Origin: Candidatus Fraserbacteria bacterium
GTDB lineage: Bacteria; Bipolaricaulota; Bipolaricaulia; RBG-16-55-9; DRXL01
Reading direction: 5' to 3'
Assembly (NCBI GenBank): GCA_037440025.1
Contig: JBBIUX010000004.1
Span: 4,290 to 68,289, forward strand
DNA length: 64,000 bases
Shown here piece by piece: positions 61-62,730 of this stretch. Numbering within the stretch: position 1 is the first letter of the stretch; every line of letters starts with the position of its first letter. The notes under the pieces are model-generated. The model saw only the letters and a list, made by a program, of their open reading frames with translations, was not told the DNA's origin and searched no databases. The position numbers were made by a program, and so were the translations under genes.

Positions 61-1332
61 CTACGCATACAGCCCCCTCGCTCGCGCCGCCGTCGCTACG
101 CGATCTACAGCGACCATGTACGAAGCTGTCCGTAAATCTGTCCTCTCTCGCTGAGCCATCTCCCAGACGCGCTCAAAAGCGTTCACCATAAACCGCCGCA
201 GGCGCTTGTCCACCCGTTCAGGGCTCCAGAAGTAAAAAGCCCGATCTTGCACCCATTCAAAATACGAAACCGTGACTCCGCCGGCGTTGGCTAAAATATC
301 GGGCACAACCAAAATTCCTCGGTCGTACAAGATACGGTCGGCTTCGAGAGTGATCGGACCGTTGGCCAGCTCAATGATTGTCTTGGCTCTGATCTGTGAA
401 GCATTTGCTTTGGTGATCTGGTTTTCTATCGCTGCCGGGACCAAAATGTCGCACTCCAGTTCTAGAAGTTCTTGATTGGTGATGGGCTCAGTGTTCTTAA
501 ATCTCACAACTGAACCGGTCTTGCGCTCATGCTCTTTGAGCGCCACCGGCTCGATTCCATCAGGGCTATACACACCGCCTTTGGCATCGCTGATGGCGAT
601 AATCCTCGCGCCGCCTTCAGCACAGAAGCGCGCCATGTTCGAGCCGACGTTGCCAAAACCCTGAATGGCGATCCGTGCCCCCTCGAGCTTCATGTTGAGG
701 CGTTTGAGTGTCTCCAGGAGCACAAAATAGCCGCCCCGGCCGGTCGCCGTGTCGCGTCCTTCCGACCCGCCTAACACTTTGGGCTTGCCCGTGACTAGCC
801 CTGGCATGAACATGCTGTTGTGGTGCATGCTAATAGTATCAACAAACCAGGCCATCTCGCGCTCCCCGGTGAAGACATCTGGGGCGAGAATGTCTACATC
901 AGGGCCGATAATGGGCGAGATCTCTGCCGCATACCGTCGGGTGATGCGCTCCAGCTCGCCGGTGGAAAGCTCTAACGGGTTGCAGCGCACGCCGCCCTTG
1001 GCCCCGCCAAAGGGAATCTGAGCTACAGAACATTTCCAGGTCATCAAAATGGCAAGCGCTTCGACCTCTTTTAACGTAATATCGGGGTGATAGCGAATGC
1101 CGCCCTTGGTCGGCCCCAGCACCAAATGGTGCTGCACGCGAAAGCCCTCAAAATGCTGCACGCTCCCGTCGTCCATCACCACGGGGAAGACGACGATGAG
1201 CTTGCGCTTGGGGTAGCGTAACAGAGTCCGCAAGGAGTCTTCTAACTTCAGGCGGTTTGCCGCTTCATCAAAGAAGTAATGAGCTGTCTCCAACACGCCA
1301 ATCTCGGACTTGCGTTTGAGTTCCTCGGACAT
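61..1332 (-). CDS. Glutamate dehydrogenase (Glu/Leu/Phe/Val dehydrogenase family), paralog 1. True start is probably MSEELKRK at 1332. The upstream part of the listed ORF (to 1386) is read through a palindromic repeat.
   Basis: The ORF has the GPTKGGIRYHPD and GGAKGG motifs and a Rossmann NAD(P) motif (GFGNVGS). It is about 70% identical in eye-alignment to ORF 55062..56339. The N-terminal MKGGMGEGRGGGRGEV stretch is encoded by repeat copy R1. Confidence 0.88.
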   Translation of the reverse strand: MSEELKRKSEIGVLETAHYFFDEAANRLKLEDSLRTLLRYPKRKLIVVFPVVMDDGSVQHFEGFRVQHHLVLGPTKGGIRYHPDITLKEVEALAILMTWKCSVAQIPFGGAKGGVRCNPLELSTGELERITRRYAAEISPIIGPDVDILAPDVFTGEREMAWFVDTISMHHNSMFMPGLVTGKPKVLGGSEGRDTATGRGGYFVLLETLKRLNMKLEGARIAIQGFGNVGSNMARFCAEGGARIIAISDAKGGVYSPDGIEPVALKEHERKTGSVVRFKNTEPITNQELLELECDILVPAAIENQITKANASQIRAKTIIELANGPITLEADRILYDRGILVVPDILANAGGVTVSYFEWVQDRAFYFWSPERVDKRLRRFMVNAFERVWEMAQRERTDLRTASYMVAVDRVATAARARGLYA

Positions 1333-1354
1333 GGATAAAACCTCTCCTCTGCCC

Positions 1355-1440
1355 CCTCCCCGACCCTCACCCATCCCTCCCTTCAAGGGAGAGGGTGCAG
1401 GGGGAGGGTTCCCCTTCCCTTTAGAGAAAGGGACTGAGGA
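1355..1440. repeat. Palindromic GC-rich element, copy R1, in the intergenic region between lon and gdh. Made of tandem hairpins of the CCCTCCCTT..GGGAGAGGG and CCCTTCCCTTTAGAGAAAGGGA type.
   Basis: Sequence similarity to the R5 and R7 copies on the opposite strand. Hairpin-forming inverted repeats are seen directly. Confidence 0.6.
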
Positions 1441-4758: not shown

Positions 4759-6648
4759 TTACGGCAGCGGCCCGAAGACCGATGCTCCCGTGAGCCAATA
4801 GGCGACCAACGTCTGCAGAGTTTTTAGGTCAATCTTGCCGAAATCCACTCCGCCAGCTTGTTTGCTGGTCACGGATTTGTCTGCCAACCAGAAGAAAGAG
4901 ACAGCAACCTGAATTTGATCAAAACTGATAGTGTTCGTATCGAGCCACAGGTTCACTCTGGGATTGGCGGCATCGCTGACGTCCATGCGGGCGAAGACCA
5001 CGGGCCACGGCAGCTTAGTATTAATAACTTTGATCTCCGTCTCTCCCGTGATGGCCATCTCAAAATTGGGCGATGCACTGCTGATATTGCCACTGAGTTT
5101 GATCACTTGGGGCCCCATATTATCAGGGAGGATCAATTCGTATTCGATGGTGCGCACCGTGCCGGCCTCCAGGGCTTCTAAGAAGACCCACAGGGCTTCT
5201 TTGATTTCGCCGGCCTCTTTAGGCTCCCGCGGGATCCCGCTGTCACCAGCGACGGCCTTGAACTGTAACCCCCTGGGGAAACGCTCCATGACGACCAGGC
5301 CGTTCACACGGTCTATAGTACGAATAGTCAGCGTCACCTTGACGCGCTCCCCAGCGATGGTCTCATCATTGGGCAGGTTGGTGTCAATCGTGCGCGTCGC
5401 GATGGCCCGGGGGGTGAAGACCCGCACGGACTTCGTTGCGCTCGCCTTCTCGCCGTCCGTGTCGGTGACGGTGAGAGTTACAGTGTAGGTCCCATCAGCG
5501 CTGTAGCGATGGATCGGGCTCTGTTCGGCCGAGCGCGCCCCGTCGCCAAAATCCCACTCCCAGGAAACGATTCCTACGTCGTCGGTCGAACGATCTATAA
5601 ACGTGACAGGAGTATTAGCCGCCGGATCGGCAGGCAAGATATCGAAATTGGCCGTCGGCGGACGGTTGCGGTCACGCGTGACCAATGGAATCGGAGCGAT
5701 CCCCGGCGTGACCAACCGACCGCGCGAGTCCAGATAACTGAAAAGAGGCTTCAGTGAAGCCGTTCCCGTTTGTGAGCCGCCGACGGTAAAGCTGGCCTCC
5801 CAGACGTCGCCGGCGAGCAGGCTCTCTAGTTCCCAGACGATGGTCGTCGAACCATCAGGGTTTTTCGTCACGCGGTTGGGGGCATTGAACGTGGCAACCC
5901 CATAATTAAGAAGAGCGGGCAACGAGAGAGTGATCTTGATCTGGCGTGCCACGGTCTTCTTTCCCAAGGCTTTGGCGATCTCTTGAGAGACGGTGTCATC
6001 GAATTTTTCAAAGAACTGCCCTTGAGTGAGCCGGGCCAGCTCGCGCAGAAGAGTTTTATCCGGGTTGCGCCCGATGGCAACAGTGAAAATCACGACACCG
6101 CTCTCAGCGGAGCGTTGGGCCTGCGCAAGCGGCGTGCGCCCGATGTTGTAACGTCCATCGCTGACCAGCACCATAGCCCAGGACGCTTCTTCACGACCAT
6201 TCAAAATCAGGGTGTCGAGGGCTTTGCCCAACCCTTCGCCGACGGCCGTCTTCCCTATGGGGCGGAGTAGCTTCAGCCCTTGGCGCACGGCCTCATGGTC
6301 GAACGTCAAGGGCACGTCCACACGGGCATCGGTGCTGAACGAGACCAGCCCGACACGATCTTGCGGGGAGAGGGCCTCAACGATGGCTGAGCCGATCTTT
6401 TGCATCTCTGGGATATTGACGGTCGCTGAACGATCAATCACGAGAAAGAGATCTGTCGGGGCGCGCTCACCTTCCGGCCCGGAAGAGAGACGCAACGTGA
6501 GCGTGGCTTCTTGGTTGACAAAGATTGCCGGTGGAGAGATGTTCACAGTGAGCTGCACGGTAGGTGAAACTACTTGAGAATGCGCTGTCAGCCATCCCAG
6601 ACAGATCAAGCTCGCTGTGAGGGTGCTCAGGCGTTTCAATCTGGTCAT
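4759..6648 (-). CDS. Secreted vWA-domain plus PKD-domain protein with a dockerin-like C-terminal module. Start at MTRLKR (GGAGG RBS). The longer listed ORF reads into repeat R3.
   Basis: Signal peptide present. vWA/MIDAS-like LFLVIDRSATV..VGLVSFSTD..LVSDGRYN. PKD signature SWEWDFGDGARS...YTVTLTVTDTDGE. C-terminal tandem segments DTNTISFDQIQVAVSFFWL and VDFGKIDLKTLQTLVAYWL. Confidence 0.75.
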   Translation of the reverse strand: MTRLKRLSTLTASLICLGWLTAHSQVVSPTVQLTVNISPPAIFVNQEATLTLRLSSGPEGERAPTDLFLVIDRSATVNIPEMQKIGSAIVEALSPQDRVGLVSFSTDARVDVPLTFDHEAVRQGLKLLRPIGKTAVGEGLGKALDTLILNGREEASWAMVLVSDGRYNIGRTPLAQAQRSAESGVVIFTVAIGRNPDKTLLRELARLTQGQFFEKFDDTVSQEIAKALGKKTVARQIKITLSLPALLNYGVATFNAPNRVTKNPDGSTTIVWELESLLAGDVWEASFTVGGSQTGTASLKPLFSYLDSRGRLVTPGIAPIPLVTRDRNRPPTANFDILPADPAANTPVTFIDRSTDDVGIVSWEWDFGDGARSAEQSPIHRYSADGTYTVTLTVTDTDGEKASATKSVRVFTPRAIATRTIDTNLPNDETIAGERVKVTLTIRTIDRVNGLVVMERFPRGLQFKAVAGDSGIPREPKEAGEIKEALWVFLEALEAGTVRTIEYELILPDNMGPQVIKLSGNISSASPNFEMAITGETEIKVINTKLPWPVVFARMDVSDAANPRVNLWLDTNTISFDQIQVAVSFFWLADKSVTSKQAGGVDFGKIDLKTLQTLVAYWLTGASVFGPLP

Positions 6649-6662
6649 ATCGTTCCTCCCTT

Positions 6663-6783
6663 GGCCCTCACCCCGCCGCACCCCTCTCCCGTCTTTACGG
6701 ACGGGAGAGGGGCCGGGGCGAAGCGTTTTGGTGCAGCATTTTTTCAGAAAGCGGTCGCACCAAAACGCTTCGGGGTGAGGGCC
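6663..6783. repeat. Palindromic element copy R3, a compound nested copy of about 120 bp with an extra internal hairpin GAAGCGTTTTGGTGC...GCACCAAAACGCTTC.
   Basis: Outer stem GGCCCTCACCCCG/CGGGGTGAGGGCC and two internal perfect stems, read directly. Confidence 0.8.
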
Positions 6784-6795
6784 TTCTCTCCCGTT

Positions 6796-8931
6796 CTACC
6801 GCGTCGCCGCGGGCAACGGCTGATCTACGGGTGTATCCGTAAGCCAATACGAGATGAGTATTTGCAACATTCTAAAATCTATAGTCTTCCCGCAGGTGCC
6901 GACAACCTCTTCGTCTTCTAACCAGAGGGCGATGGCCGTCTGGATCTGCGCAAAACTGATCTTGTTTGAGAGCGCGACGTCAATGGTGTTCTGCTCAACA
7001 TTGAGGTGCGAGATGGCCACCGGAATGTCGAGGCACTCCACGACGTTCAATAATTGATCTTTGCCAACCTCGATCTGGAAGTTGGGCGAGAAGGACTCGA
7101 TCAAGCCTTGAATCACATACTGACTGATGATCTCGTCCATGGGAACGACGACTTCATAGATGACGCTGCGGCGAGAACCGGCGGGAATCTTCTCCGTGAA
7201 GATCCACGTGTTCGCCAATTGCTTGAAGGCGGCGCTGCTGCCTTCTAAAGGCTTCACTTCCCAGCGTTCGGGCAATTTTTCCGTCAGGGCCAAGCCAAAG
7301 AGATCTTTTTCGGCATGCACTTCGACCTTCACACGGAAGATATTCCCGCCTGGGGTGCGCAAATACACTTGGAAGAACGGGAGCGGCGCTAAGATCGAGC
7401 GCAGGGCTGAACCGCTGACCGAGGTATCTTCTTCGATGGTCCGATCTACGGGCACGTTCGCCAAGTGATGGGCGACTAGTTGTTTCAGCGATTGCAGGTC
7501 GAGTGGGGCCTCGCACGTCCCCGGCACCGCAGTATCCTCTTGCCAGAAGGCGATTCCACGTTGCATTTGGTCAAACGTGACATCCTCCGGCAAGCGCAGA
7601 TTGACAGTATCCGTTGCCGTATCCAAATGTGCCAACGCGACGAGAGGGGGCAAACAGGTCACGATGGAAATTCGTGAGTAGGATTCGTTGGTCTCTCCCA
7701 AGACGGGAATCTCTTTGATGTCCGGCACGGTGCTCGACACACGCCCGACGATGTCAAAATCTTGAGGCAGCGGGCCGCCGATCAATTGATCGGTCTTAGG
7801 GATGGTCACATCGTAGACGATGCGGCGGGTCTCGCCGCTGCGCACGATCGTGGGAAAGACCCATTGGGTTTGGGCGACTTTGAACGTTGCGCCGGCGCTG
7901 TCAATGGGGGTGACCTCCCAGTTCGCCGGTAGGTCTTCGTCCAAGCCAAGGCCGCTCATGGAAGTTCTCACAGTAATCGTCACGGTCACTCTAAAGGTCG
8001 TCCCTAGGGCAGCATGAGTCGTCGTGACCACGCGCCGGGCGAAAGCCACTTCTTTTTCGACGGTGATCGTTTTCGTGATCTGCGCGATGGCGCCCTTATC
8101 GTCGGTGACGCGCAGGGTGACTTTCACTTCGCCGATCTGGGTGAACGTGTGCTGCACTGTTGGTTTATCCGTAGAGATTTCGAAAATGTTGTCTGCATTA
8201 AAATCCCATTCGTACTTGACGATCTTGCCGTCGGCGACCGTGCTGGCACGAGCATCAAAAGTCACCGGCACGTTGATGCTCACCACTGATGGGGAGAACG
8301 TAAAGTCTGCTTTCGGGGGCGCTCGGCGGAAGGCGCTCAGCACTAAGGGCTCGACGGGGCTGGGCAGCTGAAATCTCTCGGGATTGACGGGATTACCGCT
8401 GAGCACCTGCCAGCCGTCAATGCCTCGGATAAATGTCGGGGTTATGGTGATCTCGAACTCATCGGGCAGCCCACTGATGACGACTCCGTCGGCGCGCTCG
8501 GCCAGCCAGCGCCAGGTCATCGTGGCTGTCGGCGGGGTGAACTCATACGTATCTGCCGGGTCGTCGCGCAAGGTAATTTGCGCTGTCGGGGGGAGACCGT
8601 CGAAGCGCAAGGTCGCCTCGCCGCCAGCAGGGTTGCCCGGCTTACTTAAGATAATAACTAAGCTCAGATCACGGGTGTTTTGATCTCGATAGAGAAAGAC
8701 CAGCGCCTGGTTGTCTATTTCTAAGCCGGTGTTCGGTTGATCGTTGGCGAAGCGATAGAACTCCACGGCCGATCCCGGTTGGGTCAGCGGGGTGATCGGC
8801 GTAGAAAACGCTCCTTGACGCGCGAGGAAGAAAGATGGCGTTTGCTCAGAAACTACCCCTTGGCCTGATCCTGTTACAGCGATCAATGCCAGCACCAAGA
8901 GCCCAGAGAGAACTTGCCGAATGACACGCAT
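6796..8931 (-). CDS. Secreted 711-aa PKD-domain protein with two 'GLGLDED' domains and two dockerin-like modules, one internal and one C-terminal.
   Basis: Signal peptide MRVIRQVLSGLLVLALIAVTGSG. PKD signature KYEWDFNADNIF...VKVTLRVTDDKGA. Repeated GLGLDEDLPANWEV.. and GLALTEKLPERWEV.. domains. Module copies ..ISFAQIQTAIALWL..KTIDFRMLQILISYWL and VTFDQMQRGIAFW..LDLQSLKQLVAHHL. Confidence 0.7.
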   Translation of the reverse strand: MRVIRQVLSGLLVLALIAVTGSGQGVVSEQTPSFFLARQGAFSTPITPLTQPGSAVEFYRFANDQPNTGLEIDNQALVFLYRDQNTRDLSLVIILSKPGNPAGGEATLRFDGLPPTAQITLRDDPADTYEFTPPTATMTWRWLAERADGVVISGLPDEFEITITPTFIRGIDGWQVLSGNPVNPERFQLPSPVEPLVLSAFRRAPPKADFTFSPSVVSINVPVTFDARASTVADGKIVKYEWDFNADNIFEISTDKPTVQHTFTQIGEVKVTLRVTDDKGAIAQITKTITVEKEVAFARRVVTTTHAALGTTFRVTVTITVRTSMSGLGLDEDLPANWEVTPIDSAGATFKVAQTQWVFPTIVRSGETRRIVYDVTIPKTDQLIGGPLPQDFDIVGRVSSTVPDIKEIPVLGETNESYSRISIVTCLPPLVALAHLDTATDTVNLRLPEDVTFDQMQRGIAFWQEDTAVPGTCEAPLDLQSLKQLVAHHLANVPVDRTIEEDTSVSGSALRSILAPLPFFQVYLRTPGGNIFRVKVEVHAEKDLFGLALTEKLPERWEVKPLEGSSAAFKQLANTWIFTEKIPAGSRRSVIYEVVVPMDEIISQYVIQGLIESFSPNFQIEVGKDQLLNVVECLDIPVAISHLNVEQNTIDVALSNKISFAQIQTAIALWLEDEEVVGTCGKTIDFRMLQILISYWLTDTPVDQPLPAATR

Positions 8932-20890: not shown

Positions 20891-22633
20891 ATGTCCCAGA
20901 GTGTCATCGCGCGGTCGCTGCTGCACAAGCGTCGCTGGCGTCTCAAAGATTTTTCTGCCGAACGGGCAGCGCAGATCGCCCGTGAGTTCGGGTGTTCTGC
21001 TCCCTTAGCTCGTGTAGTAGCCGTGCGTGCCCCCGACAACCCGCAAGAGCTCCTCCATCACAATATAGAGCAAGTGAGTTCGCCGTGGGAACTGCTGGGA
21101 GTCAAAGAGGCCGTTCAACGGATTGATCAAGCCCTGCACAGGAACGAGAAGATCTTTATCCAAGGGGATTTTGACGTTGATGGCATCACAAGCACGGCGC
21201 TGCTCTATAAAGCATTGCGCCGGCTCGGAGCCCAAGGTATCAAAGTTGATCTCTCCGATCGAGAACGGGGGCATGGTCTCAGCCCTGCTGTTATCGAGCG
21301 ACTCAAACACGAAGGGTTCTCGCTTTTAGTGACTTCTGATTGCGGCATCTCCGAAGTTGAGTTTGTGCAGAGCCTTCAAGAGCACGGCATTGACGTGATT
21401 ATCAGCGACCATCACCATCCGCCACCGCACCTCCCTCCAGCGCACGCTATTATCAATCCGAAACAGCCGGGATGCGCCTATCCTAATAAAGATTTAGCTG
21501 CTGTGGGTGTGGTCTTTCAAGTAGTGCGCGCGCTCTATGAGCAGCGTGGGCTGCCTCCGCAAGCGTGTGAAGAATTTTTAGACTTGGCCATGCTCGGCAC
21601 GGTGGGCGATCTTGTGCCTTTGGTGCGCGGCGGCCACGCCGAAAACCAAAGACTGGTCGCGCAGGGGCTGCGGCGCATTGCTGAGGGCCACGGCTGTCTG
21701 GGGGTGCGCAAGCTCATGGAAAAGCTCTCGCTCGATCCCCAACGCACAACGACGGCTGAAGTGGGCTATATTATTGTCCCTAAGCTCAATGCGGCCAACC
21801 GCGTGGGTGACCCCCGCGATGCGTTTATGCTCTTAGTGACGGCACTCCCTGAAAAAGCCGACCAGCTCGCAGCCAAATTGCTGGCGTATAACCAAGATCG
21901 CCAGATCGCTCAAGATGACTTACTCTACCAAGCCGAAGAGATGCTCCATCAACAGCCGGACTGGCAGAACGAAAGGCTTATCTTTTTGGCCGGACAGTAC
22001 TGGAATCCCGGCCTTATTGGGCTGGTCGCTTCGGATTTGGCCGAAAAGTATTACCGCCCGACGATTCTCTTGGCTGTGGGGGACGAAGTCAGTCGCGCCT
22101 CATGTCGCAGCATTCCGGGGTTTGACATCATCGCGGCTTTAGAAGAACATAGCGAGCTATTTGAACGTTACGGCGGTCACGCCATGGCCGCGGGGTTTTC
22201 GATTCGCACCGAGAAGCTCCCTCTCTTGAGAGAGCGCCTGAGCGCCTATGCCCGCACGGTCCTGCGTGATCTGGAAGGCCCCCTGCACGAACTCGAAACG
22301 GAGCTCGCACCAGAAGAGATCACACTGGAAACGCACGCCGATATCTTACGATTAGCGCCCTTTGGCATGGGGCATCCCACACCGCGCTTTCTCCTGCGCT
22401 CTGCCCGGATTGTGGAGCTGCGCACGGTGGGCAACGGGAGCCGCCATCTGAAGCTCAGAGTCGAAGCTGGGGGCAAAGAGTTCTCGGCTATGGGGTTTTC
22501 GCTGGGAGAATTTGCCTACGAAGTTGAGCAAGCGGGCCGGGTGAGCCTCGCGTTCAAGCTCGGCTGCGATACCTGGACGGGTCGCCCACAAGTGCAGTTA
22601 GAGATCGAAGATATGCTAGAGCCCTTGATTTAA
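20891..22633 (+). CDS. recJ: Single-stranded-DNA-specific exonuclease RecJ.
   Basis: DHH family motifs DFDVDGITS and ISDHHHPP. A DHHA1-like C-terminal region. Length 580 aa. Confidence 0.9.
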   Translation: MSQSVIARSLLHKRRWRLKDFSAERAAQIAREFGCSAPLARVVAVRAPDNPQELLHHNIEQVSSPWELLGVKEAVQRIDQALHRNEKIFIQGDFDVDGITSTALLYKALRRLGAQGIKVDLSDRERGHGLSPAVIERLKHEGFSLLVTSDCGISEVEFVQSLQEHGIDVIISDHHHPPPHLPPAHAIINPKQPGCAYPNKDLAAVGVVFQVVRALYEQRGLPPQACEEFLDLAMLGTVGDLVPLVRGGHAENQRLVAQGLRRIAEGHGCLGVRKLMEKLSLDPQRTTTAEVGYIIVPKLNAANRVGDPRDAFMLLVTALPEKADQLAAKLLAYNQDRQIAQDDLLYQAEEMLHQQPDWQNERLIFLAGQYWNPGLIGLVASDLAEKYYRPTILLAVGDEVSRASCRSIPGFDIIAALEEHSELFERYGGHAMAAGFSIRTEKLPLLRERLSAYARTVLRDLEGPLHELETELAPEEITLETHADILRLAPFGMGHPTPRFLLRSARIVELRTVGNGSRHLKLRVEAGGKEFSAMGFSLGEFAYEVEQAGRVSLAFKLGCDTWTGRPQVQLEIEDMLEPLI

Positions 22634-24318
22634 TCCAAAGCTATCCGGGCGGCTTTCAACAGATAGACCTGAGCGATAAAGAGCAGGATGGCGCTGGTAC
22701 GACCCAACCGACGTGGTTCTTGGAGAAGCCGATAGAACCATTCGAGCCCCAGTTGTCGCCATCGCTGAGGGGCACGCCTCAAGCGCCCAGCCCACACATC
22801 AAAGCACCCGCCGACGCCCATCATTACTGGCACATCAAGTTTCTGACGGTTCTCTAGCATCCAACGCTCTTGCCGGGGCACACCCAAGCCAATGAGTACC
22901 ATATCGGGTTGGACTTGACGAATGACTTCTAGAACTTGATCGTTCTCGTCAGGGTGGAAATACCCGTGCTGTGTCCCTACGATCTGGAGATTCGGATATT
23001 TTTCAGTCAACCGTTGAGCGGCTCGCTCCGCTACGCCGGGCGCGGCACCCAAAAGAAAGGCTTTCAGCCCTCTTCCTTGTGAGAAGAGCCTTTCTAGGAG
23101 ATCAATTCCAGAGACGCGCTCGCGCAAAGGCGCTCCTAACAGACGCGCGGCCCAAACGAGTCCGGTGCCGTCGGGAGTCACCAAGTTCGCTCGCGCGTAT
23201 GCTTCTCTCAGTTGCCGATCTCGCTGAGCACGTAGAATGGCCGTCGTGTCCGGTGTGCAGACCAGTGCTCTTTGATGAGACACTATGAAATCTTCTATCT
23301 TTTCAACGGCTTCGTCGAGCGACACTCGATCAAGCGGTGTCCCAAAGAGAACTATCTTTTTCATCCCAGCGACGACTCGTCTCAAACGCAGGGCCGCCCA
23401 CACTATTAAGCCGACCCCGATTGCTGTGACCGCGAACACCCCAATCCAAAGCTCCCACGGCAGCCGCGTTGCCAGAAACGCTAGGACGCTCGCGTAGGAA
23501 CAGAACGCATACAGACAAAAGAGCGCTGTGGAGCGCCCGATCTTGAGGCCATCCAGCCAGGCGAAATGGAGTCTTTGACTATACACAATAGAGAGCGTAC
23601 TCGTGAAGGGCAGCCCTAGCGCAATGAGTGGTGCCAAAAGAGCTACCGAAGCCGTTGTCTTCACAAGGCCACTAATGGCCGCGAGCGCCAGACTGTAGCC
23701 GACGGCTCGGCTCCACCGTGCCACCGGCACGGCTCGCGCACGCAATCCCCTCACGGCCACCACAAGCGTGAGCAACAGCATCACGCTGAAAAATTGCTCC
23801 TGCCAGAGGCCGATCAATGCCAAGGCGCTTCCGGCGACAACAAGCGTCTTGGTCAGCAACTTGCCTGTGGAGTCAAGCTGCCCTGCAACAAACAATCCCT
23901 GGCTCACCGCGACGATCCACCCGAGCGTGAAGAGCGAGCTCCACTCACGGGGATAGAAAAAACCTCCGTTGGGGTTGGTGACAAAGTCAATGCGATAGCC
24001 CAGAGCGTAGGCCCATAGACCCGCGACGATCAGGCTGAGAAACTCAACCCCGGGGCGCGGCCTGGCCGCTGAGATGGCGAGCAACGCGGCTCCCAAGAGC
24101 ACTCCCCACAAACGTAGGTCATAGAGATTCCAAAGAAAAAAGAGAGAGAGGGGGATAAGCGTGATGAGATAAAACGCCCCTCTCCGCCAAAACGATTTGG
24201 TGCGACCACTCTTGTAAGAGAGATGCTGCGCCAAAGCGTTCCGCAACGATCTGTCTGTCGTTGCCATGTACCGACGGAATACCCCCTTTGCTTCTCCCAG
24301 TCTAAAAGAAGTCCCCAA
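22630..24318 (-). CDS. Fusion protein: an N-terminal polytopic membrane domain (O-antigen polymerase/ligase-like) plus a C-terminal WecB/TagA/CpsF-family glycosyltransferase.
   Basis: About 10 hydrophobic helices in the first ~310 aa. The C-terminus KIVLFGT...TPDGTGLVWAAR...GVPRQERW matches TagA/WecG N-acetylmannosaminyltransferases. Confidence 0.7.
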   Translation of the reverse strand: MGTSFRLGEAKGVFRRYMATTDRSLRNALAQHLSYKSGRTKSFWRRGAFYLITLIPLSLFFLWNLYDLRLWGVLLGAALLAISAARPRPGVEFLSLIVAGLWAYALGYRIDFVTNPNGGFFYPREWSSLFTLGWIVAVSQGLFVAGQLDSTGKLLTKTLVVAGSALALIGLWQEQFFSVMLLLTLVVAVRGLRARAVPVARWSRAVGYSLALAAISGLVKTTASVALLAPLIALGLPFTSTLSIVYSQRLHFAWLDGLKIGRSTALFCLYAFCSYASVLAFLATRLPWELWIGVFAVTAIGVGLIVWAALRLRRVVAGMKKIVLFGTPLDRVSLDEAVEKIEDFIVSHQRALVCTPDTTAILRAQRDRQLREAYARANLVTPDGTGLVWAARLLGAPLRERVSGIDLLERLFSQGRGLKAFLLGAAPGVAERAAQRLTEKYPNLQIVGTQHGYFHPDENDQVLEVIRQVQPDMVLIGLGVPRQERWMLENRQKLDVPVMMGVGGCFDVWAGRLRRAPQRWRQLGLEWFYRLLQEPRRLGRTSAILLFIAQVYLLKAARIALD

Positions 24319-37235: not shown

Positions 37236-39530
37236 CTAGCGCAAGAGCACCAGCTTGCCTAGGGTTCGAGTTCTCAGTCCGTCGGGGTTCTCTATCGTGA
37301 GCACATACCAATAGAGCCCATTGGCCGGAGTGTGTGGCCAGCGCAACGCCAACGTCGGTCCCAAGCTCTCTTGTTCGACCAGACGGCGGCCGTCGAGCGC
37401 GTATACGGCTACTTTCAGAGAGCACCCTTCGCAGTTCTGTACGCTCCAGCGCATGGCACTGGGAACGAAGCGAACGCTGTGCTCTGCTGCACGAAGCTCA
37501 ATGAACGGCTCGATGCTTTCTGGTTTGATGAGCCGGAAGCGCTTGCGCCGATCGGCCAACTTGAGCGCCGCGCGCATCTGGGAAGAGACTTTATCAATGC
37601 GCGCGATGGCTCCGTTGAGTAGAGCACGCCATTGTGCAAACGCGAGCACGAGCTTATCGCGGGCGCTTCGGATCAACTCTGCGGGCGACAGCGCTTCGAT
37701 GGGGGTAGGCTCGACCACCAGGGCTTGCATTGCTGAGAGCCCATCTCCGGCTTCTGCGAGAAGATCGAGGGCCTCTTCGATCATCGCTTCGACGGTATCA
37801 ATACGTTCGTTGGCGCCGTCGGCGAACTCGCTCAGCGCGTCAATGGCTTTCTGGATGCGGGAGGCACGCTCGGTGCTTATTGTATTTGTCTCGACGAAGG
37901 CATCGACTTGGAAGCGCACCCCTTCAGCGCGCTGCGCCAGAGATTCCATCAAAAAGCGCGTATCGGCTAAAGAGACGAGCAGTTCATTGACGGTCTCTTG
38001 AGCTTGGCTGAGGAGCTGGCGGGCACGCTCATGGGCGCCGAAGCTATTGAGTAAACTAAGGGCTGAACGCAAATCTTCGAGGGGTTTGGAGAGACTCAAC
38101 GTGCGCCCGTGTTCGATGATATCGCGCTTCATCGCGCCGAGCTCATCGCGGCCTGTGGGGGTGAGCTTCTTCGCCGTGACGGAGACGGTGCACGATGCAC
38201 TCGCGCCCTCAGGATCTGTGACGGTCAGCTTCACAGAGTATGCGCCTTCTTTATCGGCTTTAAACGTTGTGATAGCACTAGTCGGGTTCTCAATGACGGC
38301 CTGGCTGTCGGTGGGTTTACTAACGAATGCCCATTGATATGTCAGAGCTTTTCCTTCGGGGTCGGATGAGCCGGAGCCGTCAAGAGCAACTGTCTGGCCG
38401 ACGAGGACTTCAGCTGGGACGGTGCCACAGCTTGCCGTAGGCGGCTGATTAGGGGGAGGTGCTTCGCTCACTTGAATACTCTGCTGAGCCGTATCTGTTG
38501 CTCCGGCGCTGTCCGTGACGGTCAGCTTAATCGTGGCTTTTCCCGGGGTAGTAGGGCAAGTGAAACTGACTTTTGCCCCCGTCGCATCGGGCTGGCCGTC
38601 GCCGTTGAAATCCCACTCGTATTTTACAATCTGGCCTCCGGGGTCAAAGGAGCCGGAGCCGTCCAGGGTGATCGTCTGACCGGTGTTACACGTATACGGT
38701 TCGGTATCGGGTTTGCCGTCGGGGATCGGGCCTGGGTCTGCAACCGGGGGCTCGTTGATGGTGGCGACGAGTTTCTGTTTGAGTGCGCTCTCCAAATCAG
38801 CAAAGGTCTTGATGATGATCACAAAGCCGTTCTTGTGACCGGGCGGGAAGGGAGGAGCTATAACCCCTGGTTGCGGCCAAGCCAATTGCAGCAGAAAGTC
38901 TTTAAATTCTGGCTCGCCCTCCACGTCGCCGATGCCCTCGGCATCGAGTTGATCAAGCCCGGCTCTGACAGCTTCATCCCGCGCCTCGAGTGTCTGTTTT
39001 CTGGCTTCTGATGGGGGAGAGGGCATGGTGGGCTGGCCATCGGAGATGATATTGAAGACCTGGCGCGCCCCGGCGCGAGCCTTGTCGCCCGTAATGAGGG
39101 TAGCAGCAAGCCGAACCCCGGAGACCATCGGCGTAAAGCCGCCCCCTTTGATGACCGCCTTGATCCGATCTGTGACAGAACCTACAGTTTGCGGCGTGAT
39201 AATGGTCATGGGGACTTCGACACGCGCACCGGGTATCCTCGTCGTTGGATCTGTCATATTGCTGCTAAACTGCACCATCCCGAATTCAATGGTGCCGTTT
39301 TGGGGCACGACGGCAGGATCGGAGATGGCGTTGGCAACCCCAGTGATCATGGTGGTAAAATCTGCACTGGATATACTCCCCGAGCCGTCAATGATAATCA
39401 CGAGCTGGACTGTGACGTTAGTGTTCGTCTGGGCGTTTGGGGCAACAACAAACAGACAGAGCAACCCCAGGCTCATCAGAAAAATTTTCGCGCTTGTGCG
39501 ACCCATACAAAAGCCTCCTTCACTGATCAC
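37236..39530 (-). CDS. Large secreted adhesin-like protein: N-terminal vWA domain, two PKD domains, a coiled-coil region, and a C-terminal T9SS-type (Por secretion tail) sorting domain.
   Basis: Signal peptide. vWA/MIDAS VIIIDGSGSISS. PKD signatures KYEWDFNGDGQPD and LTYQWAF...YSVKLTVTDPEG. C-terminus VAVYALDGRRLV...GLYWYVLTIENPDGLRTRTLGKLVLLR fits the TIGR04183-like pattern. Confidence 0.7.
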   Translation of the reverse strand: MISEGGFCMGRTSAKIFLMSLGLLCLFVVAPNAQTNTNVTVQLVIIIDGSGSISSADFTTMITGVANAISDPAVVPQNGTIEFGMVQFSSNMTDPTTRIPGARVEVPMTIITPQTVGSVTDRIKAVIKGGGFTPMVSGVRLAATLITGDKARAGARQVFNIISDGQPTMPSPPSEARKQTLEARDEAVRAGLDQLDAEGIGDVEGEPEFKDFLLQLAWPQPGVIAPPFPPGHKNGFVIIIKTFADLESALKQKLVATINEPPVADPGPIPDGKPDTEPYTCNTGQTITLDGSGSFDPGGQIVKYEWDFNGDGQPDATGAKVSFTCPTTPGKATIKLTVTDSAGATDTAQQSIQVSEAPPPNQPPTASCGTVPAEVLVGQTVALDGSGSSDPEGKALTYQWAFVSKPTDSQAVIENPTSAITTFKADKEGAYSVKLTVTDPEGASASCTVSVTAKKLTPTGRDELGAMKRDIIEHGRTLSLSKPLEDLRSALSLLNSFGAHERARQLLSQAQETVNELLVSLADTRFLMESLAQRAEGVRFQVDAFVETNTISTERASRIQKAIDALSEFADGANERIDTVEAMIEEALDLLAEAGDGLSAMQALVVEPTPIEALSPAELIRSARDKLVLAFAQWRALLNGAIARIDKVSSQMRAALKLADRRKRFRLIKPESIEPFIELRAAEHSVRFVPSAMRWSVQNCEGCSLKVAVYALDGRRLVEQESLGPTLALRWPHTPANGLYWYVLTIENPDGLRTRTLGKLVLLR

Positions 39531-55061: not shown

Positions 55062-56339
55062 ATGGCAACAACGGCAGAAGTCAAACGAGAAGGCGAGCTA
55101 AAGATGCTCAAGACGGCACGGTATTTTTTCGATGTGGCGGCGAACAGGCTGAAGCTAGAAGAGAGTCTAGTGGAGCTCTTGCGCTACCCAAAGCGCAAGC
55201 TGATCGTCAACTTCCCCGTGCGCATGGACGATGGCCGGACGATTAACTTTGAGGGCTATCGCGTGCAATGTCACCCAGTGCTGGGGCCGGGCAAGGGCGG
55301 TATTCGCTATCATCCGGACACCACGGTCGAGGAGGTCGAAGCCTTGGCTGTCCTGATGAACTGGAAGTGCGCGGTGGCCGGATTGCCCTTTAGTGGGGCC
55401 AAGGGTGGCGTCAAGTGCAACCCCAAAGAGATGTCTGTTGGGGAGATCGAGCGGCTCACCCGGCGCTATGCGGCGGAAATCTCGCCGATCATCGGGCCAG
55501 ACGCAGATATTCCTGCACCCGATGTGTACACAAGCTCGCGGGAGATGGCTTGGATCGTGGACACGATCAGCATGCATAAGAGCGGCGAATTCGTGCCCGG
55601 TCTCGTGACGGGTAAGCCGTTGCTGCTGGGCGGCTCCCTGGGGCGTGAGACGGCCACGGCCCGCGGCGGCTTCTTCTGCACGCTCGAGGCGCTCGATCAC
55701 TTAAAAACCAAGCTCGCAGGGGCTACGGTTGCTATTCAGGGCTATGGCAACGCCGGGTGGTACTATGCCAATTTCGTGCATGAAGCCGGCGCCAAAGTGA
55801 TCGCGGTGAGCGACTCGCGTGGCGGTATCTATAATAGCAAAGGTCTCGACCCTCAAGCCGTCCAAGCGTTCAAGAAAGAGACGGGCACGGTCGTCGGTTT
55901 CAAGGGAGCAGATAAGATCACTAACGAAGAGCTGTTGGAACTCAAGTGTGACATCCTAGCGCCTTCCGCGTTGGAGGACCAACTGCATGAGCGCAACGCC
56001 AGCAAAGTGCAAGCTCGGGTCATCTGCGAGCTGGCCAACGGTCCGACGACACAAGAAGCCGATGCCATTTTGTACCAGCGGGGGATCTTTGTCATCCCGG
56101 ATATTTTGGCCAACTCCGGCGGTGTCACGGTCTCGTACTTTGAGTGGGTGCAAGATCGTTATCGTTACTTCTGGGACGCTAAGAAAGTGGACAAGCGCCT
56201 GAAGCTCTTTATGACGGAATCGTTCCGGCGTGTTCTGGCCATGCACCTCAAAGAGAAAGTAGACGTACGCACGGCGGCATTTATGACGGCCGTAGCTCGT
56301 GTTGCCGAAGCGGCGCGGGCTCGCGGACTGTACGCCTAG
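55062..56339 (+). CDS. Glutamate dehydrogenase (Glu/Leu/Phe/Val dehydrogenase family), paralog 2.
   Basis: GPGKGGIRYHPD and GAKGG motifs. Highly similar to ORF 61..1332 in the opposite orientation. Confidence 0.9.
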   Translation: MATTAEVKREGELKMLKTARYFFDVAANRLKLEESLVELLRYPKRKLIVNFPVRMDDGRTINFEGYRVQCHPVLGPGKGGIRYHPDTTVEEVEALAVLMNWKCAVAGLPFSGAKGGVKCNPKEMSVGEIERLTRRYAAEISPIIGPDADIPAPDVYTSSREMAWIVDTISMHKSGEFVPGLVTGKPLLLGGSLGRETATARGGFFCTLEALDHLKTKLAGATVAIQGYGNAGWYYANFVHEAGAKVIAVSDSRGGIYNSKGLDPQAVQAFKKETGTVVGFKGADKITNEELLELKCDILAPSALEDQLHERNASKVQARVICELANGPTTQEADAILYQRGIFVIPDILANSGGVTVSYFEWVQDRYRYFWDAKKVDKRLKLFMTESFRRVLAMHLKEKVDVRTAAFMTAVARVAEAARARGLYA

Positions 56340-58262: not shown

Positions 58263-58796
58263 ATGGCTCTCTTCCAACGCAAACCAGAAAAATATTTTCA
58301 GTTTTATGCTCAGGTGCACTTTCTCACCTGCGAGTTGTGCTTGAGCCATCACGGGGAGATTACTGATACTCCTACACTTCAACCCCCATTACACCCGACG
58401 TGTCGCTGCCATCTGCTCGAATTTCTCCCTACAGAGCTAGAATACTATCGCGAACAGGCCGAACGGATGAGACTTCGTGCTCAGCAAGAGCTTCAACGCC
58501 GCCAGCTCTGGAGAGAAGCCGTCGAGAGCTTAAACGGCGCCGACCCCACACAAGCTGAGGCGCTCTTTCGCCAAGCGGCCCAGGTCGAATTCTACCTCGA
58601 AGAGGTCGAACAGCTCTGCCAAGAGAAGCGCGACTTGCTTGCAAGCACCCCGGAGCTGCGCGCGCGGTTGCAGAAGCTCTTTATAAAGTCCTATCGCATG
58701 AAATTTAGCTTAGACAAATATCGCCCGATGTCCTCGCGGCTGATCTTGCTGTGGGAGACCCAGGGGATCGAACGGATCAAAGAACTCTTGCCATGA
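58263..58796 (+). CDS. Hypothetical protein with an N-terminal Cys/His cluster containing a PLHPxCRC motif (phage MuF-C-terminal-like), followed by a predicted coiled coil.
   Basis: CELCLSHHGEI...PPLHPTCRCHL. Recalled similarity to the HPNCRC motif of phage head morphogenesis (Mu F/SPP1 gp7) C-terminal domains. Confidence 0.4.
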   Translation: MALFQRKPEKYFQFYAQVHFLTCELCLSHHGEITDTPTLQPPLHPTCRCHLLEFLPTELEYYREQAERMRLRAQQELQRRQLWREAVESLNGADPTQAEALFRQAAQVEFYLEEVEQLCQEKRDLLASTPELRARLQKLFIKSYRMKFSLDKYRPMSSRLILLWETQGIERIKELLP

Positions 58797-59160: not shown

Positions 59161-62100
59161 ATGTTCCGTTTGGTAGATCGCTACTTCGTACGCGAGATGA
59201 TCTTTCCCTTTGTGCTCGCCGTCGTGGGATTTGTGCTCTTCATCGTGCTCAACCTCATCCAACAGCTCTCAGACTTCATGCTTGATCGCAATATCTCTCT
59301 CTGGGTGCTCTTTCAAATATTGGCCTATCGCCTGCCCGAACTCTTAGTGTATGGCTTGCCCGTCGGTGTTTTATTCGCGATCTTCTGGGCACTGGGCCGC
59401 CTCAGCCATGACCGCGAGCTGGTTGCTCTCCAAGCCGCAGGGTTCTCACTCAGAAGACTGATGTGGCCCGTCTTGCTCATGGGATTTATCACGACGGCCA
59501 CGGCTTTCGCCGTGGGAGAACTGTGGATGCCCTGGGCCAATCATCGTTACTACGATCTCTTGCGCGAGATCTTTTTGATACGCTCTGCTCCGCAGATTCG
59601 TGAGTCGACGTTCGTGAAGATCAGCGACAGCGCTTACGCTTATATCGAACGGTACGACCCTCAGACCAAGGAGCTGCGCACCGTGATGGTCTTCGACCGA
59701 GGCGGCGGCGAATATCTCGATGAGCTGGCAGCACGCTTTCCCAAGATCATCACCGCCGAAGAAGGTCTGTGGGACGGCGAATATTGGCGACTGGCAAACG
59801 GGAAACTCCATAAGTTGCGCGATGATGGCCAGTTCGAGTACACCGTTATCTTTGAACAGCTTTCGATACGAGCCGGGCCCTATCTGCAAAAGCTCTTCTT
59901 TGAGCAGCGCACTCCTCATGAGATGGGTATACTCGAACTGTATAAACAGATAGAGTTGCTCCACCGCAGCGGTCTGGGAGCGGAGAGCTTGATCGTCGAG
60001 CTGCACTCCAAGATCGCCGTGCCATTTTCGGCTTTGATCTTTGCACTCTTTGGTGCTCCCCTGAGTTTGATCTTCGCGCAGGGAGGTGCCCCGCGCGGAC
60101 GGGCTGCCGGTGTCATTATGAGCTTGCTCTTGGTTGCCGGCTACCAGGGGTTACTCTTATGGATGTCAACGCTGGGCAGGCGGAGCTTGATCGCACCTAT
60201 CTTGGCTCCTTGGATTCCCAATATTCTGTTCGCGCTGATCGGGCTTCTTTTGCTGCTCTGGGTGGATCGGCTCAGCCGCATGGATCTTCTCGCGCGTCTG
60301 CGACGGCTCGTCCCGTTTGGGGCGTTCCTACTGGCTTTCGGGAACTTTTACACCGTTGCTCAAGAGCCACCGCCCATCTCGCTCGACCTGCAAGCCGACA
60401 AGCTCACCGTTGCCCGCGATTGGCGCGAGCTGACCGCTGATGGGCACGTTCGCCTGGAGTACGCCAATGGCCGACTCCAAGCGGACAGACTGAGTGCCCA
60501 GCGGATTCCCCCCTCTCTCTCTGATAAAGGGAGAGCGGAAGGAAGGAAGGGTGAAGCGTGGCGCATCGCTGCCCAAGGGAGCGTCTCTTGGGAAGGTGAG
60601 GGCTTCAAGGGCGAGACAGAAGCCATCGAACTCCAAATAGGGTGGGATGGCACTGCGTGGCAGCTAGAGGACGCACGATTACTGACAGCTCGCTTGGAGT
60701 ACGAGCAGGGGAGCCTGCGCGCCGATGAGATCGTTGTGCGGCGCGCCGAGCATGAGCGCATATGGATCGCCGAAGCACGCGGCCGTGTGCGTCTAGAAGA
60801 GCAAGGGGACAAAAAGACTGTAGACTACGCTGACGCCGACGAACTGACGCTCGAACTGGTCACCCCTAGCCCTTCTTCCGTTCGTGAAGACGGGGCAGGG
60901 CAGGGTGAGGGCCAAGTGCGAGCCCGTTCGGCTGTATTGAAGAATTTCATCGGCCAGACGCGCTTTGAAAGCGCCGCCAAAAAGCAAGAGACCCTGCGTT
61001 TCCAAGGCCGCCAAGCCCAAGCGACTTTCTCCCCAGACGGACGCATCAAACTTCTAGAAATAGCCACGGGCGAGATCACCACGTGTACCTGCCCTGACCC
61101 GATCACACGATCAGCCTACTCGATCGCTGCGGCCGGCGTCCGATTGGAGCTTGGTGAGTCTGTTCTGGCAACCAATATCCTGTTAAAAACCTATGGGGTA
61201 CCCATCTTCTGGGCCCCAGTCTACTTTGCCTCCCTGAAAGAAGAGACGAAAAACCCCTTGCTGCCAGACTTTGGACAGCTGCCCGCCCGCGGCTGGTACG
61301 TCCGCTGGCGCTTTCCCTTTGTCATTGACAAGAACAATACCGGCACGCTCGTGGTTGACTATTACACCAAACTGCCCGAAGTGGGAACGGGCATAGAATA
61401 TAACTATAGATTTTGGTCGCAGCAGGGCCAGATGTCGGTCTATCGCCTCGTTGGTCGCGGCGAGTCCAGGGCCGTTGATTGGAACCATCAGGCCCAGCTG
61501 CCGCTGAACATGCGTTTATCTCTGGGGGTCTCTTCACGAACTGGCCTCTTAGAACAAGAAGCCCAGCGGCTCTTCTCGCGAGCGCTCTTGTCGGCTGACT
61601 GGGGGCCTGTGCGCTGGAGCGCGCTCTGGAGCCGTGATCACAACCTGCTGCAACCGGAGCCGGATAAAGAACAAATAATTCTCTATCGTCTCTTGGAAAA
61701 GACCCCGGAGCTGACGCTCTCGCTCGTGCCCCTGCGCTTGGGACCGCTCCCGCTCTCGCTGACGCTGGGTGTCGCGTGGGGCACATATCGTGAAAAGAAG
61801 CTGGATCGAGAAAACTTTGACGAGAGCACACGGTTTGATACCGTCGTGGGCTTGCAGTCTCTCGCGCTGGGAACGGCTATCTTCACCATGCAGACCAGCA
61901 CCAATTATCGGCTCTCGCTCTATGAGCCCCAACGATATCGTCGTGAGGCGTATGATCTGACCGTGGCGCTCAGCCTGCGCCCGCTGCCCGGCTTGAGCGC
62001 CGACATAACGTATTCGTATCGGCGCGTCATAGGGCAAAGCCCATTTAGCTTCGATCAGCTCAGTCTGCTGCACCGGGTCACCATACGAGCGACCTCGACG

Positions 62101-62730
62101 ACCGTACCATTCAAGCCTGTCTTCACGACCGGCTACGATCTTGAGCTAAAGACATTCGATCCGTTGCGTCTTGTGCTCCGCGAAAAGATCACGGGTCTTG
62201 ATGTCGTCACCACCTGGGAGTATGATCTCAATCGATATCTTTGGAATAGAGCAGAACTCAGCCTGAGTGGGGCCCTGGATATTGTTGCTCTCGCTGCGCT
62301 GATGCCGGAGCCGCTGCGATCATCGTTGGATGTGCCTGGAGAGATACCCCCCCTCACCGTGCAGCTCTTGGCGGCCTATCTTTTTCCCATAAAATCATTT
62401 GAAGATCTGATTCTCAAGTTGCGTTGGGGCACGCACGGCTTGGGCATCAATTTTGATCTCAATCGTCTCTCTCTCAGACGATTCAATCTCGAAACGAGTT
62501 GGCAATGGGGGTCCGACTGGGAGTTTTCCATCAAAGGCGAGTACGATCTGCCCACGCAACGCCTCACGGCTCTGCAAGTAGGCGTGATAAAAAAATTCTG
62601 TCAGGCGTGTTGGCAGCTGGGCGTCTATAGTGACAGCCAGAGAATATGGCTCCAGGCACAGATCAACGCGTTCCCCACAGCGCAGGTGCGCTACTCGCCG
62701 ACCGACCAAAGACTGTCATTCGGTTCCTAG
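59161..62730 (+). CDS. Single continuous ORF fusing an LptF/LptG-family LPS export permease (residues ~1-370) to a signal-peptide-like helix, an OstA_N (LptA-like) domain and an LptD-like OstA_C beta-barrel region (residues ~375-1189).
   Basis: N-terminus YjgP/YjgQ family (MFRLVDRYFVREMIFPFVLAVVGF...ELVALQAAGFSL). Junction MDLLARLRRLVPFGAFLLAFGNFYTVAQE. LptA-like LQADKLTV...GHVRLEYANGRLQADRL. LptD-like GVPIFWAPVYFASL...LLPDFG...GWYVRWRFPF..D.N..GTLVVDYY..GTGIEYNY. No stop codon in 3.57 kb. Confidence 0.8.
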   Translation: MFRLVDRYFVREMIFPFVLAVVGFVLFIVLNLIQQLSDFMLDRNISLWVLFQILAYRLPELLVYGLPVGVLFAIFWALGRLSHDRELVALQAAGFSLRRLMWPVLLMGFITTATAFAVGELWMPWANHRYYDLLREIFLIRSAPQIRESTFVKISDSAYAYIERYDPQTKELRTVMVFDRGGGEYLDELAARFPKIITAEEGLWDGEYWRLANGKLHKLRDDGQFEYTVIFEQLSIRAGPYLQKLFFEQRTPHEMGILELYKQIELLHRSGLGAESLIVELHSKIAVPFSALIFALFGAPLSLIFAQGGAPRGRAAGVIMSLLLVAGYQGLLLWMSTLGRRSLIAPILAPWIPNILFALIGLLLLLWVDRLSRMDLLARLRRLVPFGAFLLAFGNFYTVAQEPPPISLDLQADKLTVARDWRELTADGHVRLEYANGRLQADRLSAQRIPPSLSDKGRAEGRKGEAWRIAAQGSVSWEGEGFKGETEAIELQIGWDGTAWQLEDARLLTARLEYEQGSLRADEIVVRRAEHERIWIAEARGRVRLEEQGDKKTVDYADADELTLELVTPSPSSVREDGAGQGEGQVRARSAVLKNFIGQTRFESAAKKQETLRFQGRQAQATFSPDGRIKLLEIATGEITTCTCPDPITRSAYSIAAAGVRLELGESVLATNILLKTYGVPIFWAPVYFASLKEETKNPLLPDFGQLPARGWYVRWRFPFVIDKNNTGTLVVDYYTKLPEVGTGIEYNYRFWSQQGQMSVYRLVGRGESRAVDWNHQAQLPLNMRLSLGVSSRTGLLEQEAQRLFSRALLSADWGPVRWSALWSRDHNLLQPEPDKEQIILYRLLEKTPELTLSLVPLRLGPLPLSLTLGVAWGTYREKKLDRENFDESTRFDTVVGLQSLALGTAIFTMQTSTNYRLSLYEPQRYRREAYDLTVALSLRPLPGLSADITYSYRRVIGQSPFSFDQLSLLHRVTIRATSTTVPFKPVFTTGYDLELKTFDPLRLVLREKITGLDVVTTWEYDLNRYLWNRAELSLSGALDIVALAALMPEPLRSSLDVPGEIPPLTVQLLAAYLFPIKSFEDLILKLRWGTHGLGINFDLNRLSLRRFNLETSWQWGSDWEFSIKGEYDLPTQRLTALQVGVIKKFCQACWQLGVYSDSQRIWLQAQINAFPTAQVRYSPTDQRLSFGS
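60515..60565. repeat. Degenerate palindromic-element-like segment inside the LptD-like domain, in frame.
   Basis: CCCCCTCTCTCTCTGATAAAGGGAGAGCGGAAGGAAGGG encodes PPSLSDKGRAEGRKGE, similar to the PPSLKGRG..SLGEGLGER peptides from copies R5 and R7. Confidence 0.4.

Follow-up and report, generated by a model that had tools for sequence, protein, structure and literature searches.

The canonical lipopolysaccharide (LPS) transport (Lpt) machinery of Proteobacteria, LptB2FG-LptC-LptA-LptD/E, is encoded by two or more genes. A different arrangement has been described for Thermotoga maritima, in which the "putative ABC permease" G4FGC1 is a fusion with LptF/G-, LptA- and LptD-homologous domains (Sexton et al., PNAS 2023, PMC10160955). 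G4FGC1 was found enriched in the toga by mass spectrometry and is conserved in all Thermotogae, and the text implies homologues in other phyla (PMC10160955). Here we analyzed an open reading frame (ORF) of the same domain composition in a 64,000-nucleotide stretch of DNA from Candidatus Fraserbacteria bacterium (Bipolaricaulota; assembly GCA_037440025.1, contig JBBIUX010000004.1, positions 4,290 to 68,289 of the forward strand), in the following referred to as the window. The ORF is located at 59161..62730 on the plus strand, starts with ATG, and encodes 1189 amino acids (aa) followed by a stop codon at 62728–62730, exactly as an earlier note on this DNA had reported. That note regarded a single-chain trans-envelope Lpt machine as highly unusual. 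The fusion architecture is, however, already known from Thermotogae, and what is added here is the question whether it yields a single chain or a precursor. We consider it essentially certain that the LptF/G-LptD-like fusion is genuine and that both homologies hold, and fairly probable that the ORF encodes a two-in-one precursor (polyprotein) that would be cut by signal peptidase I (SPase I) at the joint between its halves.

The likeness to G4FGC1 includes the single ORF with LptF/G, LptA and LptD parts as well as the type of organism, a toga-type diderm without LPS genes, and Thermotogae are the sister group of Bipolaricaulota. This comparison rests on the published description, with sequence homology between the two proteins being assumed. 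Bipolaricaulota are diderm with a toga-like sheath (PMC6092417; bioRxiv 10.1101/2025.11.21.689855; bioRxiv 10.1101/2021.05.31.446380) and share the Omp-alpha/Omp-beta/CsaB tether (bioRxiv 10.1101/2021.05.31.446380). No LPS genes are present in Ran1 (Ca. Bipolaricaulis), the single closed genome of the phylum analyzed in the literature (PMC6092417). Neither processing nor an internal signal peptide is a topic of the main text on the Thermotoga protein (PMC10160955), and in the main texts of the literature we found no description of the fusion in Bipolaricaulota.

A fused ORF can result from an assembly or sequencing artefact in which a lost stop codon or a frameshift merges two neighboring genes. 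One relative described below (L066) does carry the two genes separate and adjacent to each other, and a single-base error could fuse such a pair. However, an identical 1189-aa protein is found in a public collection of proteins (cluster P0001 with 4 member sequences), and the GC content (0.52–0.62) is even across 59161–62730 and continuous over the joint. Both halves could be aligned in 32 homologues with identities down to 29%. Scanning GTDB with one genome for each species, we obtained 65 loci, and in every locus with sufficient upstream DNA (about 50 of the 65) the hidden Markov models (HMMs) of the permease and of the barrel matched within one stop-free frame. These single-frame loci span 24–100% identity and originate from different metagenome-assembled genomes (MAGs), studies and assemblers. 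A profile search with diverse fusions yielded about 80 further protein clusters of 970–1200 aa with both parts in one frame. The survey of relatives suggested in the earlier note thus recovered the same fusion, and the junction is genuine. Given this recurrence in loci and clusters we rejected a sequencing artefact, the probability of which we consider negligible.

The taxon labels of the fused relatives are Candidatus Bipolaricaulota, Acetothermia, Bipolaricaulia and Fraserbacteria, with some MAGs loosely labelled "uncultured Thermotogae", and NCBI names the fused proteins "LptF/LptG family permease". More distant fused relatives were found in MAGs labelled Bacillota. In a related protein of about 900–970 aa from Atribacterota no LptF/G domain was found by Pfam. 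The name of a cultured Thermotoga species occurs on none of the matches from the GTDB scan and the diverse-fusion profile search; "Thermotogae" labels are restricted to uncultured MAGs. The fusion is anciently fixed across Candidatus Bipolaricaulota/Acetothermia.

The N-terminal half (residues 1–373, 59161..60279, plus strand) is an LptF/LptG-family ABC permease domain consisting of transmembrane (TM) helices TM1-3, a periplasmic beta-jellyroll and TM4-6. Pfam LptF_LptG (PF03739) matches residues 7–366 with E=7.9e-81 (272 bits at a cut-off of 27.9) and covers positions 1–352 of the 353 profile positions. Using phmmer, residues 4–367 align end-to-end with the solved E. coli LptF (6mhu_F, E=1.5e-9), the match to LptG being weaker (2e-7). 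An AlphaFold2 (AF2) model of the full protein, calculated from the 32-sequence alignment with a mean predicted local distance difference test score (pLDDT) of 78.7, contains six long helices at residues 2–43, 47–83, 102–121, 275–307, 313–340 and 349–373. Its strands place the jellyroll at residues ~150–237 (59608..59871, plus strand). This agrees with the six-helix permease with a periplasmic jellyroll that had been recognized in the earlier note. When the full model was compared to the PDB by Foldseek, LptF/G chains were found at TMt 0.6–0.7, ranked after LptD chains. The NCBIfam equivalogs were not reached, neither for LptF (TIGR04407, 175 bits vs 230) nor for LptG (TIGR04408, 168 vs 240). 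Judged by its sequence, the permease is a member of the LptF/LptG family that is assignable to neither the LptF nor the LptG orthologue. The coupling-helix region (residues 80–96, RLSHDRELVALQAAGFS; 59398..59448, plus strand) is near-invariant among the 32 homologues. Its Glu86 aligns with Glu84 of E. coli LptF ("KLYTESEITVMHACGLS" of 6mhu_F), a residue which we take to contact LptB in the E. coli system, and the family shares with the canonical Lpt machinery an LptF/G-family permease that carries this Glu.

The C-terminal half comprises an extended beta-jellyroll of the OstA/LptA/LptD_N type (residues 401–~695, 60361..61245, plus strand) and a large LptD-like beta-barrel (residues ~703–1189, 61267..62727, plus strand). 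AF2 strands of the jellyroll extend from residue 409 to 691 with low-confidence loops at 453–463 and 572–583. The predicted barrel consists of 26–29 strand segments according to DSSP, with a pLDDT mostly of 85–93. A separate AF2 model of the C-terminal part reached a pLDDT of 83.6 and a pTM of 0.61. Presumably the jellyroll is about 1.6 times as long as LptD_N of E. coli. The clade of the window protein has ~85–100 extra residues in the jellyroll compared to homologues such as P0010 and P0034. These residues (~445–463 and ~525–600; 60493–60549 and 60733–60960) form two beta-hairpins and two low-confidence charged loops in the model.

Several results would be expected if this half were a large barrel unrelated to LptD, e.g. 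porin or usher-like, and if the Lpt reading were over-interpreted. Pfam PF04453 (LptD/OstA_C) does not match the window protein and matches only 1 of 11 family members (0.036) and 3 of 53 relatives (3e-5). Pfam LptD_N (PF03968) stays below threshold in the window protein (15.2–15.4 bits vs 20.4, E 0.023–0.065), with matches in 6 of the 11 family members (best 5e-6). NCBIfam likewise gave nothing for the C-terminal part. A phmmer search of it against PDB sequences found nothing, and the profile of the 11 family members (A2) gave marginal LptD matches only (E 0.33–0.54). When A2 was compared by hhalign to P0315/P0317, a fusion with a canonical LptD barrel described below, the probability was 38.7% (E=3e-4), indicating a distant relationship. 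The TM-scores of the C-terminal part to LptD are 0.37–0.44 and thereby below 0.5.

However, all top structural matches are LptD. In the Foldseek comparison with the PDB the first 15 matches of the full model (best E=1.8e-22) and the first 37 matches of the C-terminal part alone (E=4.7e-20, 780–940 aligned columns) were LptD without exception. The next family for the C-terminal part was BtuB at 3e-5, i.e. 15 orders of magnitude behind. In addition, the A2 profile retrieved 2383 cluster representatives (50% identity level) from 1.84 billion proteins, many of which are stand-alone proteins of 680–800 aa with E-values of 1e-26 to 1e-72. A profile built from the C-terminal part of the window protein and 52 of these stand-alone relatives (A3) reached solved LptD at 1.1e-29 to 1e-20 in two stretches and solved LptA at 7e-10 among the PDB sequences. 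Some relatives match PF04453 or LptD_2, or carry the NCBI name LptD. The fusion to LptF/G itself also argues against an unrelated barrel.

Sequence motifs point in the same direction. The blocks GVPIFWAPVYF, GWYVRWRFPF and DYYTKLPE, highlighted in the earlier note as LptD signatures, align in the profile alignments to the conserved jellyroll/barrel junction of solved LptD. Two cysteine pairs also have counterparts in solved LptD: Cys642-x-Cys644 (TTCTC; 61084..61092, plus strand) at the end of the jellyroll aligns with "YTRC" of the solved LptD 8h1r_A, and Cys1147-x-x-Cys1150 (FCQACW; 62599..62610, plus strand) in a C-terminal barrel strand aligns with "CCW" of solved LptD. Cys642 and Cys1150 are invariant in the alignments A1, A2 and A3, Cys642 even in distant stand-alone relatives. 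In these alignments both residues match the interdomain cysteine positions of LptD, the disulfide itself being predicted.

The assignment thus rests on structure and transitive profiles, with Pfam failing on the window sequence. By predicted fold and transitive profile search the C-terminal part is LptD-like; the modest TM-scores suggest a divergent LptD relative, and an unrelated barrel appears very improbable. The OstA_N-like domain of the earlier note is found again as a beta-jellyroll in the AF2 model and in the LptA match of A3, whereas LptD_N did not confirm it. The note had also made its LptD assignment depend on OstA_C HMM support. Such a match is absent, but this is overridden by the Foldseek and A3 results. 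Apart from its signal peptide, the C-terminal part resembles canonical LptD in the N-terminal jellyroll, the large barrel and the Cys residues at equivalent positions. When sampling 8 of the A2-found representatives, we found PF04453 in none of them. The representatives include one protein from Margulisiibacteriota and others from MAGs labelled Firmicutes/Bacillota or Atribacterota.

The joint between the two halves (residues 374–400, MDLLARLRRLVPFGAFLLAFGNFYTVA; 60280..60360, plus strand) is an internal segment resembling a signal peptide, and its presence after the permease had been noticed before. RLRRL forms its n-region, LVPFGAFLLAFG its hydrophobic core and NFYTVA its c-region. SPase I is predicted to cut between A400 and Q401 (nucleotides 60360 and 60361), and the mature part following this site reads "QEPPP...LDLQAD". 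All three regions of a signal peptide are therefore present, whereas the position is internal, after TM6, and not N-terminal. Across the 32 homologues and 26 further loci the joint is conserved as a pattern, not as a sequence: it begins with an R/K-rich stretch (RLRRL, RARRF, RAKRL), continues with a hydrophobic core that is short and ends in a polar tail with a small-x-Ala site.

We analyzed 45 unique junctions located by HMM anchoring. The uncharged run at the joint has a median length of 18 aa vs 23 aa for the TM helices of the permease. Hydrophobic cores comprise 11–15 aa, many just 11–14 aa before an Asp, Glu or Arg follows. The 10 preceding residues have a median net charge of +3, and an AXA-type site (small residue at -3, A/G/S at -1) is found in 42 of the 45 junctions. 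According to this pattern the joint is built like a cleavable Sec signal peptide and not like a transmembrane anchor. In the AF2 model residues 374–406 have a pLDDT<50 and the segment is not docked on the permease.

In two relatives the parts are encoded separately. L066 (L066:6001-9505) has an operon of two adjacent genes, in which the permease gene is closed by TAG and followed by the GGTGGAGGGG element resembling a ribosome binding site (RBS) and then ATG. The LptD-like product starts with MDSLTHANSGPCAKHWVLPSLVFLTLLSWAGRA (MDSLTH...LLSWAGRA) and continues after the site with QDVASLDVKAD. In L042 (L042:9875-12049), situated on the complete 1.73-Mb chromosome CP070725.1, the LptD-like gene stands alone and LptF/G was not found within 10 kb on either side of it. 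Here the product starts with MRAIAAVAAVVCAVLAPVVLA, and the sequence after the site is ADEVPFRLQADEL, beginning with ADE. In both cases the segment equivalent to the joint serves as the N-terminal signal peptide. A neighbour-joining tree of the C-terminal parts, which is a simple distance tree, places both split forms within clades of fused forms. Read literally, the tree makes fusion the ancestral condition in this family, with two later losses of linkage in which the gene was kept. Since the split forms are nested among fused ones, covalent linkage seems to be dispensable.

The split form of L066 also bears on the possibility of two proteins arising by internal initiation, i.e. of an lptD start nested in an lptG read-through. 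The earlier note had placed this start at an ATG at 60282; the actual position of the in-frame ATG (Met374) is 60280. It precedes the signal-peptide-like segment in the window and in the 3 closest relatives, and GGTGGA is located ~14 nt upstream of it. However, 28 of the 32 homologues have Leu, Ile or Arg at position 374, in a joint that is otherwise conserved. GGTGGA belongs to conserved W-V-D codons and lies too far from the ATG, and no promoter-like site was found near the junction. In the true split form the LptD-like gene instead opens at a different start, preceded by a stop codon and an RBS at good spacing. Because Met374 is not conserved and no promoter-like site is found nearby, we rejected the nested start, which has very little probability left.

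A more serious alternative is that the chain stays uncleaved. The joint would then be a permanent seventh, LptC-like TM anchor, one chain would reside in both membranes, and the jellyroll would bridge the periplasm. The earlier note had proposed such a trans-envelope machine, and its domain order of permease, signal-peptide-like helix, OstA-type jellyroll and LptD-type barrel is borne out, with a self-consistent topology. Moreover, the fusion is retained across the whole phylum, and the Thermotoga protein, enriched in the toga fraction, was hypothesized to span the envelope (PMC10160955). On the other hand, an anchor would not need the short core, the polar c-region and the conserved small-x-Ala site, two nested lineages have separate genes, and in the AF2 model the helix is not packed on the permease. 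Geometry argues in the same way. The lateral periplasm of T. maritima measures ~70 nm by cryo-electron tomography (PMC10160955), a distance that a jellyroll of ~290 aa, estimated from strand counts to extend over a few nm, cannot cross. Jellyroll length furthermore differs by ~100 aa among homologues, so that the periplasmic arm has no fixed length within the family. A single chain integral to both membranes of a bacterium would, as far as we know, be without precedent. The signal-peptide anatomy, the two split lineages and the wide periplasm make this part of the earlier note doubtful, and we regard an uncleaved chain as unlikely. Still somewhat less likely is the specific version in which an uncleaved chain of seven helices and an LptD-type barrel makes fixed inter-membrane contacts and pumps a non-LPS lipid.

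Next to the low TM-scores and the missing PF04453 match, several points weigh against a cleaved precursor. We infer cleavage from a sequence pattern, and the uncharged stretch of the window protein (18–19 aa) could still span the membrane. The jellyroll begins ~8 residues past the hydrophobic segment and continues straight into the barrel; a helix with the N-terminal edge of a jellyroll close behind it is also how LptC, an uncleaved anchor, is laid out. Linkage as such might be useful, given how long the fusion has persisted. The ~70 nm width was measured in Thermotoga and is carried across phyla to Bipolaricaulota. The Thermotoga authors modelled G4FGC1 as one envelope-spanning chain (PMC10160955), whereas the joint and the split forms of the window family point to a cleaved precursor. 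Finally, we found no lptB, lptA or lptC in the window, and none in the 10-kb flanks of 64 of the 65 related loci.

For a cleaved precursor we propose the following mechanism. The permease would insert co-translationally with its C-terminus in the cytoplasm. As the C-terminus of LptF/G is cytoplasmic, the signal-peptide-like segment would thread in-to-out and expose its site to SPase I on the periplasmic face, thereby exporting the C-terminal part of ~790 aa. SPase I would cut after Ala400, leaving the permease with a short seventh helix. The mature LptD-like protein would be assembled in the toga-like outer membrane, where its conserved Cys pairs would staple it in the manner of LptD. Both products may form the ends of an Lpt-like route that also includes an unlinked LptB-like ATPase and would move a non-LPS amphipathic lipid or a lipid-anchored cargo to the outer membrane. 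As Ran1 has no LPS genes, the cargo would have to differ from LPS. An operon with lptB was considered and rejected: no ABC ATPase is encoded within 10 kb of the gene in 64 of the 65 loci. A second LptF/G-like gene was not found in the 64-kb window by tblastn, and the 10-kb flanks of all 65 related loci likewise yielded no second permease.

In comparison to the canonical Lpt system, the window family differs in having one gene, without a second permease paralogue, lptB, lptA, lptC or lptE nearby. LptE is reported to be missing from Terrabacteria (bioRxiv 10.1101/2021.05.31.446380). The Lpt-like systems of Borrelia, Deinococcus and Thermus are similar in that they occur in LPS-less diderms and combine a divergent LptD homologue without LptE with a non-LPS cargo; for the LptD homologue BB0838 of Borrelia burgdorferi the cargo is surface lipoproteins (bioRxiv 10.1101/2022.12.21.521298; PMC10353723). 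In contrast to the window family their genes are separate, and a fusion to the permease has not been reported. Acetonema longum, also belonging to Terrabacteria, has a single LptF/G homodimer and an atypical LptD without LptE (PMC13018214). It differs in that its genes are separate, its LptD has 16 strands in comparison to the ~26–29 strand segments found here, and it makes LPS (PMC13018214).

A precursor of the proposed layout has a parallel in FbcH of Bradyrhizobium japonicum, the cytochrome b-c1 precursor, in which a polytopic membrane protein with its end in the cytoplasm runs into a signal peptide with an exported partner behind it, the two being reportedly separated by signal peptidase. 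This system, which our literature search did not retrieve, is a lead only: proteins and pathway are unrelated, and the exported part stays at the inner membrane, whereas that of the window protein would continue to the outer membrane. Within the Lpt family an LptF-LptD fusion was noticed in P0315/P0317 (MBE6449261.1, "LptF [Alphaproteobacteria bacterium]", 1078 aa), seen on 10 contigs. The order is the same, with PF03739 (1.2e-68), a signal-peptide-like joint ("KFLARFFIVLALFFPTPIFGA" with SNV after the site), LptD_N and a barrel. In contrast to the window family, Pfam recognizes the barrel as canonical LptD (PF04453, 1.5e-42), and LPS is classically present in the lineage. P0315/P0317 is likely an independent fusion. 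We also observed tandem LptF-LptG or LptG-LptF single-chain fusions of 773–814 aa (P0306-P0314), annotated as such by JGI, which represent another hard-wiring of Lpt subunit stoichiometry.

The neighbors of the fused gene in the window are unrelated housekeeping genes. Upstream are genes for a ComEA-like helix-hairpin-helix protein, MraY and glutamate dehydrogenase, and downstream follows an EF-G-like GTPase that extends past the window edge. Directly upstream of the ComEA-like gene lies a 177-aa ORF with Cys/His-rich motifs (CELCLSHH ... HPTCRCH) and without a Pfam match (58263-58796, plus strand). The same 64 kb hold two dehydrogenase genes of the glutamate/leucine type (ELFV family; 61-1386, minus strand; 55062-56339, plus strand). 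A 561-aa protein (22630-24318, minus strand) carries a WecG/TagA-family glycosyltransferase in its C-terminal 165 aa (E=3e-68), the N-terminal ~370 aa being without Pfam match; a connection to the secondary cell-wall polymer, the anchor of SLH/Omp-alpha tethers, is possible. Three large predicted proteins (4759-8931 and 37236-39530, minus strand) contain PKD repeats, two of them also von Willebrand factor A domains, and are probably surface or adhesion proteins.

The findings have consequences for the detection of LptD in general. The LptD-like barrels that escape the Pfam LptD model form a very large family (~2,400 representatives at 50% identity), and surveys that rely on Pfam or COG to call lptD missing from atypical diderms may count too few. 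Furthermore, the LptF/G-LptD fusion is no oddity of Thermotoga; if the distance tree is taken at face value, it is the ancestral state of a neighboring phylum. This touches on the questions of how LPS-less outer membranes are supplied with lipid and which cargo is moved by the "reduced" Lpt systems of Thermotogae-like deep-branching diderms. The joint as a probable retained signal peptide poses a concrete experimental question, namely whether the gene product is one chain or two. If it stayed uncleaved, we would know of no earlier protein embedded in both membranes of a bacterium.

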